NCBI GenBank assembly: GCA_964551295.1
Contig: CAZKDJ010000002.1
Location: 1,096-65,095 of the forward strand
Direction: 5' to 3'
Length of the DNA stretch: 64,000 nucleotides
Origin: an uncultured Anaerolineales bacterium
GTDB lineage: Bacteria; Chloroflexota; Anaerolineae; B4-G1
Shown: in pieces, positions 4,467 through 18,667 of the stretch
Layout of the letters: each line of letters starts with the position of its first letter
Numbering within the stretch: position 1 is the first letter of the stretch
Program-made: the position numbers and the translations under genes
Notes under the pieces: generated by a model
Told to the model about the DNA's origin: nothing
The model's database searches: none
The model's input: only the letters and a program-made list of their open reading frames with translations

Positions 4467-5240
4467 ATGAACGACAAGTGGCGCGTATTTGGAGCGTCGG
4501 TGCGGGGGACGTCCCACCAGGCAAACGACGTGCCCTGCCAGGACGCTCACGCATATCGGGTGTTCCCCCGGGGCGAGCTGGTCGTCGCCGTGGCCGATGG
4601 CGCCGGGTCGAGCGAGCGCTCGGACGAGGGAGCACAAGTGGCCGTGCGAGAGGCTGTGGCCTCGTTGGCCTCGGTGATCGAGGGTCGCTTTGACTGGAGC
4701 CAGTCATCGTGGCAAGAGGCGATGCAGGAGGCGTTCCGCCAGGCGCGTGCGGCACTCGATGAGCTGGCCGCGCGCGAGGAGGTGGATCTGCGCGCCTTTG
4801 CCGCGACGCTGACGTGCGCAGTCGCCACCGACGACCGGTTGGTCGTGGGCCAGATCGGCGACTGTGTCGCCATCGCCGCCGACACGTTCGGTGATCTGTC
4901 CACTGTGGTCCAACCCCAGAAGGGCGAGTACGCCAGCGAGACCTATTTCCTCACCGGGCCCGACGCGCTGGACACTGTCGAGGTTGAGATCGTCTCCCGC
5001 CAGGTCAAGTCGCTGGCCGTGATCAGCGACGGACTGACGCGGCTGGCGGTCAAGCTGCCCGATTACGCGCCTGCCGCCCGGTTCTTTGATCCCCTGTGGG
5101 CCTTTGCCGTCGAGGCGGAGGATGAGGCGCAGGCCAAAGCGGAGATGGCCGCCTTCCTGGCCTCCGAGCGGGTGTGCGCCCGCAGCGACGACGACAAGAC
5201 CCTCGTGCTGGCTGTCCGGCCGAAAGGGCCCTTTGCGTAA
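4467..5240 (+). CDS. PP2C-family Ser/Thr phosphatase; second gene of the triad
   Basis: FGASVRGTSHQANDVPCQDAHAY...VAVADGAGSSERSDEGAQVA...VGQIGDC...VISDGL is the typical PP2C_2-type pattern. Confidence 0.85.
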   Translation: MNDKWRVFGASVRGTSHQANDVPCQDAHAYRVFPRGELVVAVADGAGSSERSDEGAQVAVREAVASLASVIEGRFDWSQSSWQEAMQEAFRQARAALDELAAREEVDLRAFAATLTCAVATDDRLVVGQIGDCVAIAADTFGDLSTVVQPQKGEYASETYFLTGPDALDTVEVEIVSRQVKSLAVISDGLTRLAVKLPDYAPAARFFDPLWAFAVEAEDEAQAKAEMAAFLASERVCARSDDDKTLVLAVRPKGPFA

Positions 5241-16478: not shown

Positions 16479-16570
16479 ATGGCGGGCTGCCTCTGGCTGA
16501 CGACCGGTACTCGCAAGCTAGAATTTGCAAATTCTTTGAAGTCGAATACAATAGCAAACTTGAGCGCGAA

Positions 16571-16672
16571 GTATCATCTCAATAATCCGGGGGGCGGGGG
16601 GGGGGGGGGGGGGGGGGGGCCCCCCCCCCCCCCCCCCCACCCCCCATCTTCCCCTATTTATTGAGAAGATAC
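16571..16672. mobile_element. MITE copy 1 (102 bp) with an 8-bp target-site duplication AGCGCGAA
   Basis: TIRs GTATCATCTCAATAA (16571-) and the reverse complement GTATCTTCTCAATAA (-16672). Identical AGCGCGAA at 16563-16570 and 16673-16680. The core is a G/C homopolymer palindrome. Confidence 0.75.
16589..16645. repeat. Homopolymer palindrome G6-C-G24 / C19-A-C6
   Basis: Direct count: G 16589-16594, C 16595, G 16596-16619, C 16620-16638, A 16639, C 16640-16645. Confidence 0.9.
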
Positions 16673-16690
16673 AGCGCGAATTTAATCTGA

Positions 16691-18667
16691 ATGGAGGAAA
16701 ACATGTTGCCAGTAATAACATCTTTCAATGCAAGAAGGCTGGGTGTTTTGTTTTTAACTATGTGCATAGCGGGCTTTGGGCTGACGACGTTCAGTCGGGC
16801 TTCTGCGCCAGAGCGCGCAGCCGCGCCGGCAGGGACGACGATTGGATCCGATATCACGGTCGACACGACCTGGACACTGGCCGGGAGTCCTTACTACGTG
16901 ACAAAGAAAGAGATTCAGATCAACCCTGGGGTCACCCTGACGATAGATCCGGGTGTACAAGTCCTCCTCAGAGATCAGGGCAAGATACACATTGCCGGTG
17001 GTGCATCCTTGATCGCCAGAGGGACCCCCAGTCAACACATTGCTTTCACGCAGATTGACGCTTACAGTCGCTGGAAGACGATCAACCACTACGCTGGATC
17101 GACCTCCTATTATCGTTACGTTGATTTCACCATAGGCGGTAAGGATATGGCGATGTTGCACTACGAGGGGTCGGGAACGCACACGCTGAATAACTGTACG
17201 CTCGATCATTCTTCGAAACACGGTATCTATGCCCATGGCAGTGGATTGAATCTGAGAATCGCCGGGGTCAGTATTACCCACTTTGGGCTTTACGCGCTGG
17301 CAGTTGACGAAGGTGCTGCGGTCCACATGACCGGATCCAACGTCTTTCATACGGGGCCGAAAAACGGAGTGAGTCTGAACGGTGCAACGTCGGCGCTTAC
17401 GATCACGCATTCGAACGTCTTCGTTCCCAACTTGGGCATCTACAACCAAGTCCCCGGCAGTTTCTGCGTTAACGCCCAGTACAATTGGTGGAATGACGCC
17501 AGTGGGCCCGCCGGCGGTGGCGGAGGAGTCTGTGGGGTGGGAGGTAATGGCGGCAGTGGTACGATTCTGAGTACCGGCGTGGACTGGCGCAACTATCTTG
17601 CCTCCCCTGCTCCCATCGTCGGCATCGAGACCACCCCCGTTCCATCCTTTACCGTCTCTCCCGATCCTAGCGTTGCGCAGCCTCCGGGTACCACTTACAC
17701 TTTCAACGCCTCCATCAGCACCGACGCTGAGGATTATCTCTCTTCCCTCGATTTCTGCTGGGATTGGGAGGATGACGGAGGCGGGTGCGACGCCACGACC
17801 GTCGTCGCGACCCACAGCTATGCCTCCGGTGGTCTACACACAGCGCGCCTGACCGTCACGGATACCGATGGCATGGTCGGCACGCTGACGCAGGATATCC
17901 AGGCCGGGTATGTGCCCACCGCGACCTTCACACTCACTAAAACGTCCTGGGCACAGATCGAGGTCGATCCTTCCGCCTCGAGTGACGTCGAGGATGCCCC
18001 GGGGGATCTGCTGGTCCGCTGGGACTGGGAGGGGGATGGCGTGTGGGATACAGGCGCGTACAGCGTCACCGATATTCTCACCCACGCATACGATCACATT
18101 GGACGTTACTGGCCCACTCTCAGTGTAGAGGATACAGATGGACTGGTCGACACATCGAGCATGGCGGTGGACATCATTCCGCCAGCGGCGACGAAAGTCA
18201 TCAGCGGCAGTGGAGGCACGCTGACCTCGGTGGATGGCACCGTTTGGGTCAATGTGTACACCGATACGGTGGCAGGCACCGTCATTAGCGATGGGTTGGT
18301 GATCACCCATACGCCCTGGATCACTGTGCCCATCGGCTGTAGCGCCGTGCCGGGAGATTTCACTTACCAGGGGTTCACACTGGCCGCCGAGTCGCAAGCC
18401 GATGGACAACCCATTGAACAGATCAGCGGCACTTATACGATCACGATTGCGTATGATCTCGATTACTATCGCGACGTGCTTGGCCTGCTGGTGGCCGAGA
18501 ATGTGCTCAAACTGTACCGTTGGTCGGATGCCGATGGCGAGTGGGTGCTGGTGTCGTTCACGGTCGACTCCGGGCAGCTCGTGGCAACGACGAACAGCTT
18601 TGGCGACTTTGCTTTGGTTCTGGAGCCGCATAAGGTTTACTTGCCGCTAGTCTGCAGGTCATACTAG
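16691..18667 (+). CDS. Secreted/anchored right-handed beta-helix protein with two PKD domains
   Basis: N-terminal hydrophobic signal/anchor (LGVLFLTMCIAGFGLTTF). Parallel beta-helix-like repeats (TIGSDITVDTTWTLAGSPYYV...INPGVTLTIDPGVQV...). Two PKD units (FNASISTDAEDY...HSYASGGLHTARLTVTDTDG and VDPSASSDVEDAPGDLLVRWDWEGDG...HAYDHIGRYWPTLSVEDTDG). Alternative start ATG 16703 after GGAGGA. Confidence 0.8.
   Translation: MEENMLPVITSFNARRLGVLFLTMCIAGFGLTTFSRASAPERAAAPAGTTIGSDITVDTTWTLAGSPYYVTKKEIQINPGVTLTIDPGVQVLLRDQGKIHIAGGASLIARGTPSQHIAFTQIDAYSRWKTINHYAGSTSYYRYVDFTIGGKDMAMLHYEGSGTHTLNNCTLDHSSKHGIYAHGSGLNLRIAGVSITHFGLYALAVDEGAAVHMTGSNVFHTGPKNGVSLNGATSALTITHSNVFVPNLGIYNQVPGSFCVNAQYNWWNDASGPAGGGGGVCGVGGNGGSGTILSTGVDWRNYLASPAPIVGIETTPVPSFTVSPDPSVAQPPGTTYTFNASISTDAEDYLSSLDFCWDWEDDGGGCDATTVVATHSYASGGLHTARLTVTDTDGMVGTLTQDIQAGYVPTATFTLTKTSWAQIEVDPSASSDVEDAPGDLLVRWDWEGDGVWDTGAYSVTDILTHAYDHIGRYWPTLSVEDTDGLVDTSSMAVDIIPPAATKVISGSGGTLTSVDGTVWVNVYTDTVAGTVISDGLVITHTPWITVPIGCSAVPGDFTYQGFTLAAESQADGQPIEQISGTYTITIAYDLDYYRDVLGLLVAENVLKLYRWSDADGEWVLVSFTVDSGQLVATTNSFGDFALVLEPHKVYLPLVCRSY

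Follow-up and report, generated by a model that had tools for sequence, protein, structure and literature searches.

Does the perfect G24/C19 palindrome that stands within a small repeat just upstream of a secreted protein gene exist in the organism, or was it written into the contig by the way in which the DNA was sequenced and assembled? In the stretch analysed here (the window, 64,000 nucleotides of an uncultured Anaerolineales MAG), the repeat is a 102-bp element at 16571-16672, the deposited core of which consists of G6 (16589-16594), C (16595) and G24 (16596-16619), followed by C19 (16620-16638), A (16639) and C6 (16640-16645). The original prediction allowed for two possibilities, a hyper-expanded stem serving as a contingency or G-quadruplex element and a sequencing or assembly artefact that had landed on the stem of a MITE, and the evidence favours the second. 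We consider it very likely that a genuine, IS66-mobilised MITE of a ~91-bp subfamily is inserted here, and that its G24/C19 core is an artefact of sequencing and assembly that has replaced a canonical hairpin. The parts of the locus are as follows.

16524-16552, plus strand: promoter-like site TTTGCA-17-TACAAT, a consensus match only
16525-16552, plus strand: promoter-like site TTGCAA-16-TACAAT, a consensus match only
16563-16570, no strand: left target-site duplication AGCGCGAA, 8 bp, a perfect match to the right copy
16571-16585, plus strand: left terminal inverted repeat GTATCATCTCAATAA, 15 bp, shared with the autonomous IS66-type element L122:1459-3221
16586-16601, plus strand: left subterminal arm TCC-G6-C-G6, reliable and the same as in canonical copies
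16602-16637, no strand: unreliable core, G18 then C18, in the place of the TGTGAGGGCGGC-loop-GCCGCCCTCACA hairpin
16638-16657, plus strand: right subterminal arm C-A-CCCCCC-ATCTTCCCCTAT, reliable and the same in L084 and L085
16658-16672, minus strand: right terminal inverted repeat, 15 bp, minus-strand reading GTATCTTCTCAATAA
16673-16680, no strand: right target-site duplication AGCGCGAA, 8 bp, a perfect match to the left copy
16703-18667, plus strand: downstream gene for a secreted beta-helix/PKD protein of 654 aa, with domains PKD_4, PKD and Beta_helix
23801-23912, plus strand: copy 2, of a 112-bp subfamily, with duplication CTTGATTC, a control with a reproducible core

The inverted ends and the perfect 8-bp duplication that had been described for this element are all present in the deposited sequence, and both features are common to it and copy 2, so that its assignment to the same MITE family holds. 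The two terminal repeats are complementary at 14 of 15 positions, and the end-repeat pattern occurs four times in the window where 0.04 matches would be expected, far above chance. Across the 4.5-Mb, 368-contig MAG, the end motif has 158 matches as compared to 0 for a reversed control, and more than 100 copies of the family are present in this Anaerolineae genome. An empty site is also available: contigs from two 2025 marsh metagenomes (X11 and X8), which belong to a strain ~91% identical to the window, join 16562 directly to 16673 and thereby skip 110 nt, that is, the element and one copy of the duplication, leaving a single AGCGCGAA in the related strain. The element is thus polymorphic between closely related populations. 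With inverted ends and a duplication of fixed length, small size, no coding content, many copies, an empty site and an autonomous partner, 16571-16672 is a genuine, ordinary MITE insertion.

Pairing of ends genome-wide yielded 56 complete elements of 80-112 bp that fall into three subfamilies with common ends and 8-bp duplications; the 80-bp subfamily accounts for 30 copies and the 112-bp subfamily, which includes copy 2, for 6. The right arm of the element had been reported to match copy 2 at 25 of 28 positions (the actual match is 26 of 28), and copy 2 is indeed a relative, but the true template is the third, ~91-bp subfamily rather than the 112-bp one. Members of this third subfamily read GTATCATCTCAATAATCYGGGGGGCGGGGGG-TGTGAGGGCGGC-GTAG-GCCGCCCTCACA-CCCCCCATCTTCCCCTAYTTATTGAGAWGATAC, and their canonical hairpin is GGGGGG-TGTGAGGGCGGC-loop-GCCGCCCTCACA-CCCCCC. 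The arms of 16571-16672 are of this type, and only the 26-nt hairpin between G6-C-G6 and A-C6 has been exchanged, for G18 and C19. As single-stranded DNA, the canonical ~91-bp element has an 18-bp GC-rich stem and a folding energy of -37.2 kcal/mol (z = -10.2), and in an alignment of 36 canonical copies 32 pairs are kept, 7 of them showing compensatory double changes. Of the copies scored, 25 of 46 canonical ones and 12 of 16 degraded ones have a perfect 8-bp duplication, some of the other cases being due to orientation handling or to divergence.

The autonomous partner was found in a congeneric genome (G003:C306), where L122:1459-3221 is a complete insertion sequence of 1,763 bp with the ends GTATCTTCTCAATAA and GCATCTTCTCAATAA (extended, GTATCTTCTCAATAACTGGGGGG... 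and ...CCCCCCGATTTATTGAGAAGATGC), flanked by a perfect 8-bp duplication, AGAAAACG. It contains one transposase-like ORF, of 550 aa, and no tnpA/tnpB accessory genes; an antisense frame of 542 aa is probably a GC-rich shadow frame. The 550-aa protein scores 39.7 bits against PF03050 (cut-off 23.1) and 99.9 bits (E 1.5e-28) against NCBIfam NF033517, and because the latter lies under the 180-bit equivalog cut-off, the transposase is a divergent member of the IS66 family. We traced this element by way of G013, in which an IS66-type gene (G013:C49; L120:1708-3081) ends 110 nt from an exact right family end, and then by a search with the G013 protein, to which the G003 transposase is a 57%-identical homologue; the left family end was not found at the G013 locus. 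Since L122 combines the same ends, an 8-bp duplication and a single IS66-type gene, the MITE derives from a single-gene IS66-family element and is itself non-autonomous. The family resembles MITEs of the single-ORF (ISBst12-like) IS66 elements in its 15-bp ends starting with GTA, its 8-bp duplication, its lack of coding sequence and its high copy number, and L122 is the autonomous partner with matching ends, subterminal G-tracts and one IS66-type DDE transposase gene, although its transposase is divergent. Judged by transposase, duplication and ORF count, the mobilising element is assignable to the IS66 single-ORF (ISBst12-like) group. An autonomous copy was not found in this MAG itself. Twelve other IS66-type loci in relatives were rejected as the parent; they are without the family ends and have other GTA... 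ends instead (e.g., GTAACTATTCACCTCGT at L108 and GTACTTGTTTAGCGT at L111). The MAG does encode a protein of 536 aa (G000:C71:11316-12926; L116:826-2436) that weakly resembles an IS66-type DDE transposase (PF03050, 40.8 bits) and also contains a DUF6431-like zinc-finger region, but ends of the MITE family do not flank this locus.

The core itself can be judged from other assemblies of the same locus, which was retrieved from two independent JGI assemblies through the 654-aa beta-helix/PKD gene (16703-18667). The downstream 836-aa gene as query returned the same two contigs only, there is nothing on record for the upstream 839-, 863- and 810-aa products as queries for left-flank contigs, and an exact search of JGI metagenome contigs for the left junction of this locus gave no match. 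In Ga0307422_1005075, the flanks are identical to the window at 897 of 897 and 4995 of 4995 positions, with ends and duplication unchanged, and the element is 110 nt long with the core G6-C-G15-C-G6-CGCGCCCGCG-C19-A-C6. Ga0315550_1003164, identical to the window at 5028 of 5029 positions, starts inside the element with CACACCCCCCATCTTCCCC... and has a canonical stem edge, its right edge being CACACCCCCC where the window has CCCACCCCCC. Three assemblies of one locus therefore give three cores, which differ by substitutions and mixed-sequence inserts; the letters of the G6-C-G24/C19-A-C6 core are in the record as originally described, but 16602-16637 is not reproduced in the other assemblies. 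Ordinary mutation does not leave 5-6 kb of flank with one difference at most and a neighbouring 40 nt with more than 10 differences and an 8-nt change in length. Almost certainly, the element has the canonical hairpin as its true interior, namely G6-C-G6, TGTGAGGGCGGC, a loop of 3-4 nt, GCCGCCCTCACA and C6, although no assembly joins a full canonical hairpin to both unique flanks of this locus; the right edge, CAC, was seen there directly, and the full canonical sequence at this locus is what we infer.

One could envision instead that the palindrome is real, a MITE stem that has grown into two long homopolymers, is prone to slippage and has a contingency or structural role ahead of the beta-helix/PKD gene. 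The tract is after all in the deposited contig, long runs of G and of C recur in the second assembly of the locus, and in the Logan assemblies contigs of two source runs reach out of the unique right flank into 10-12 C or more. However, the assemblies differ by substitutions and by internal remnants of CGCGCCCGCG and not in tract length alone, and the third has the canonical CAC edge despite flanks that differ at no more than one position in 5-6 kb. The same core switch moreover occurs at seven other loci, none of 23 congener copies has a G/C-run core, and degraded copies run out into junk sequence and N gaps. The original proposal of a hyper-expanded contingency or G-quadruplex stem fares no better against three cores in three assemblies, one with a canonical hairpin edge, and we regard a real palindrome as exceedingly improbable and already largely refuted. 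Homopolymeric contingency loci are well known from the poly-G and poly-C phase-variation tracts of Neisseria, Haemophilus and Campylobacter, which are reproducible and vary only in length. As in those loci, a long G/C homopolymer stands here just upstream of the gene for a surface or secreted protein, but the core changes in composition between assemblies of the same strain and is a mixed-sequence hairpin edge in one of them, so that a reproducible tract in which repeat number alone varies is not what this locus presents.

Other insertion sites behave in the same way. When the element ends of this genome, the JGI contigs and two other MAGs were grouped by their 14-nt outer flank, 24 shared-locus groups were obtained, among which 7 further insertion sites have a canonical core in one assembly but a degraded or G/C-run core in the other (C106/L069, C116/L071, C280/L062, L058/L046, C15 and L063 vs L076, C155/L060, and C33/L074). 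Copy 2, which is 112 bp and less GC-rich, is letter-identical in an independent assembly (L086). In this genome, about 72 arms are of the 91-bp type: 32 lead into G runs, 30 are canonical, 9 are neither and 1, shortened by a contig end, is too short to classify, and 36 of them reach a contig end within 130 nt. Degraded arms number 0 of 73 in the 80-bp type and 0 of 12 in the 112-bp type. Many contigs end 53-55 nt into the element, and some degraded ends trail into G/C/A nonsense (blocks of G/C/G, poly-A) or adjoin N10 gaps. The genome contains 67 runs of G or C of at least 10 nt, 39 of which are within 130 nt of a family end; the remainder are mostly at contig ends, N gaps and other G-rich hairpins.

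Two side observations concern the palindromes themselves. At two insertions, each present in two assemblies (the start of G000 C126 vs L063, and L051 vs L065), the 3-4-nt loop and its adjacent bases have opposite orientations, GCGTAGC in one assembly and GCTACGC in the other; the cause is probably ambiguous k-mers within a perfect palindrome of 40 nt, although the flip may be real. Palindromes of a G run and a C run also occur outside the family (G000 C7:53045-53076, C109:1082-1124, C174:26-75, C48:23434-23493, C165:4643-4773 and C349:2910-2960), either in other hairpin repeats rich in G or where contigs end, and appear to be the same class of artefact.

In a congener MAG from a different dataset (G001), the hairpin is intact in 23 of 23 full copies, which show ordinary point variation and compensatory pairs. 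A second MAG of the genus (G002) shares with this genome its G/C-run cores, its N gaps and its poly-A junk, as do the JGI marsh contigs. Such observations bear on a further explanation, in which template switching or slippage at the palindrome, for instance, makes the hairpin hypervariable in the natural population and each assembly records a real variant. If so, the population would carry many G/C-run variants beside genes such as that for the secreted beta-helix/PKD protein, and different samples do give different cores, with thousands of distinct G-run/C-run unitigs at depths of 5-35. Yet only datasets heavily loaded with poly-G show the variation, the degradation sets in on each strand exactly at the first non-G base after G6, as would be predicted for dephasing, the G/C/A junk in contig ends is impossible sequence, and the congener from the other dataset has ordinary point variation with compensatory pairs only. 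We therefore hold this explanation to be very improbable, and there is equally little probability that even a part of the heterogeneity is biological and the palindrome a hotspot of template switching or slippage in vivo.

Our view of the reads is provided by the Logan k=31 contigs of the source runs. Contigs of the left flank stop at 16600 and those of the right flank start at 16629 (X1) or 16627 (X3), and no Logan contig spans the core. The canonical TGTGAGGGCGGCG and ...GCCGCCCTCA are found on loose ends at 16601 and 16638, respectively, and the right-flank contigs of X1 and X3 have 10-12 C ahead of ACCCCCC. At the level of reads, more than one sample thus has the C-run, which would hold for a real tract as well. 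Summed word depth over 16594-16614 is 60,000-620,000, as compared to 3-22 in the left flank, and the source runs contain thousands of G-run/C-run unitigs of 45-55 nt. A contig of X5 has an Illumina adapter tail, CGTCTTCTGCTTG, that is followed by poly-G. In four further runs, coverage of the locus was too low to be informative. Poly-G is the no-signal call of the two-colour NextSeq/NovaSeq chemistry (fastp paper, PMC6129281), and the succession of adapter and poly-G, together with the poly-G load, looks like that chemistry.

Inverted repeats and GGC motifs are known to trigger consecutive Illumina miscalls by dephasing (Nakamura et al. 2011, PMC3141275), the miscalled base being usually the preceding base, and assemblies break at such places (PMC3141275). 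Both triggers are present in the canonical core, as an 18-bp inverted repeat and GGCGGC, and on each strand the sequence is degraded from the first non-G base past the G6 tract onwards. The locus therefore resembles Illumina sequence-specific errors in its triggers, in miscalls that equal the preceding base (G, or C on the other strand) and in the breakage of assemblies, and it resembles the two-colour poly-G artefact in that the source runs carry adapter and then poly-G. In contrast to the usual Illumina error gaps, however, the errors here were assembled into a contiguous and plausible palindrome inside a 65-kb contig.

This raises the question of whether the reads are at fault at all. The artefact could be purely the assembler's, if poly-G tails of dark cycles from opposite strands, or collapsed palindromic k-mers, had been joined when repeats were resolved or gaps closed. 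Some copies do contain N10 scaffold gaps and poly-A/poly-T junk, many contigs end 53-55 nt into the element, as expected of a k=55 graph, and loop orientation flips between assemblies, all of which would be consistent with this. On the other hand, the independent k=31 Logan assembly of the same runs has G-to-C junction unitigs and a right-flank contig that enters the C-run, which means that degraded reads exist, and by reasoning a de Bruijn walk from G^k to C^k would be impossible without reads that carry the junction. An origin in the assembler alone is thus unlikely: entry of the Logan contigs of two runs into the C-run places the error at read level, and not only in the assembler.

We thus return to a canonical hairpin degraded by sequencing and then by assembly, and with regard to the G24/C19 palindrome by itself our confidence that it is an artefact is very high. 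At the level of reads, the polymerase would stall at the hairpin and clusters would dephase, so that reads entering the GGC-rich inverted repeat from either side would lose phase. Non-G bases after the G6 tract would then be called G, the base that precedes them and also the one that two-colour chemistry leaves dark; forward reads would show G runs, and the G runs of reverse reads would turn up on the plus strand as runs of C. Such noisy words would be threaded by the assembler into a G-run/C-run of arbitrary length, or the contig would break, as at other copies. The observed runs (24 and 19) exceed the lengths that simple base-for-base smoothing of the canonical core would give, and the origin of the direct G-run-to-C-run junction in the reads is one that we infer. 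A G-quadruplex was considered as the main cause and set aside: each strand has only three tracts of G3+ and one GG, and the hairpin is the stronger structure.

A promoter TTGAGA-16-TAATCT had been proposed in the right arm, but it is absent from the consensus scan, its transcription start would fall within GGAGG (16693-16697), the Shine-Dalgarno sequence of the beta-helix/PKD gene, and better promoter-like sites are located upstream of the insertion at 16524-16552. Given these sites, the real element probably lies within the 5' untranslated region of the beta-helix/PKD gene, provided that they are used. Correia elements, MITEs of Neisseria with a TA target duplication, also insert in 5' untranslated regions, where they fold into RNA hairpins. 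The present element is similar in being a palindromic MITE of ~100 bp between a promoter-like site and a start codon, with the possibility of a long hairpin in the transcript, and differs in its transposase family and in its 8-bp duplication as compared to TA. By analogy, Correia elements could serve as a model for what the true element might do.

In biological terms, the consequence is small: an ordinary IS66-type MITE has come to lie between a gene and the site that is probably its promoter. The implication for data quality is wider, as GC-rich palindromic MITEs in metagenomes that seem to come from two-colour Illumina instruments are turned into convincing poly-G/poly-C palindromes, an artefact seen in this MAG, in the second MAG of the genus and in the JGI contigs, and such MITEs explain a share of contig breaks. 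Scans of MAGs for G-quadruplexes, i-motifs, contingency tracts or long perfect stems should be expected to encounter it repeatedly; it is recognisable through comparison of the copies of a repeat family or of independent assemblies of one locus.

Two minor observations concern the family at large. Half-elements (G000 C199:4287, C123:5014, C115:5069, C58:11526 and C4:36021, and JGI locus L080) consist of one end and a partial hairpin fused straight onto coding sequence of an unrelated kind; they may be either truncated copies or contigs made chimeric by a join at the hairpin, and no transposase adjoins the solo half-elements of this MAG (C199, C42 and others). Family ends are present in 24 of 48 genomes of the taxonomic family, and the maximum per genome, 434 exact matches to the 15-nt end motif, is reached in the 4.8-Mb genome G047, which belongs to another genus of the same family; these matches amount to a large expansion of the MITE family.
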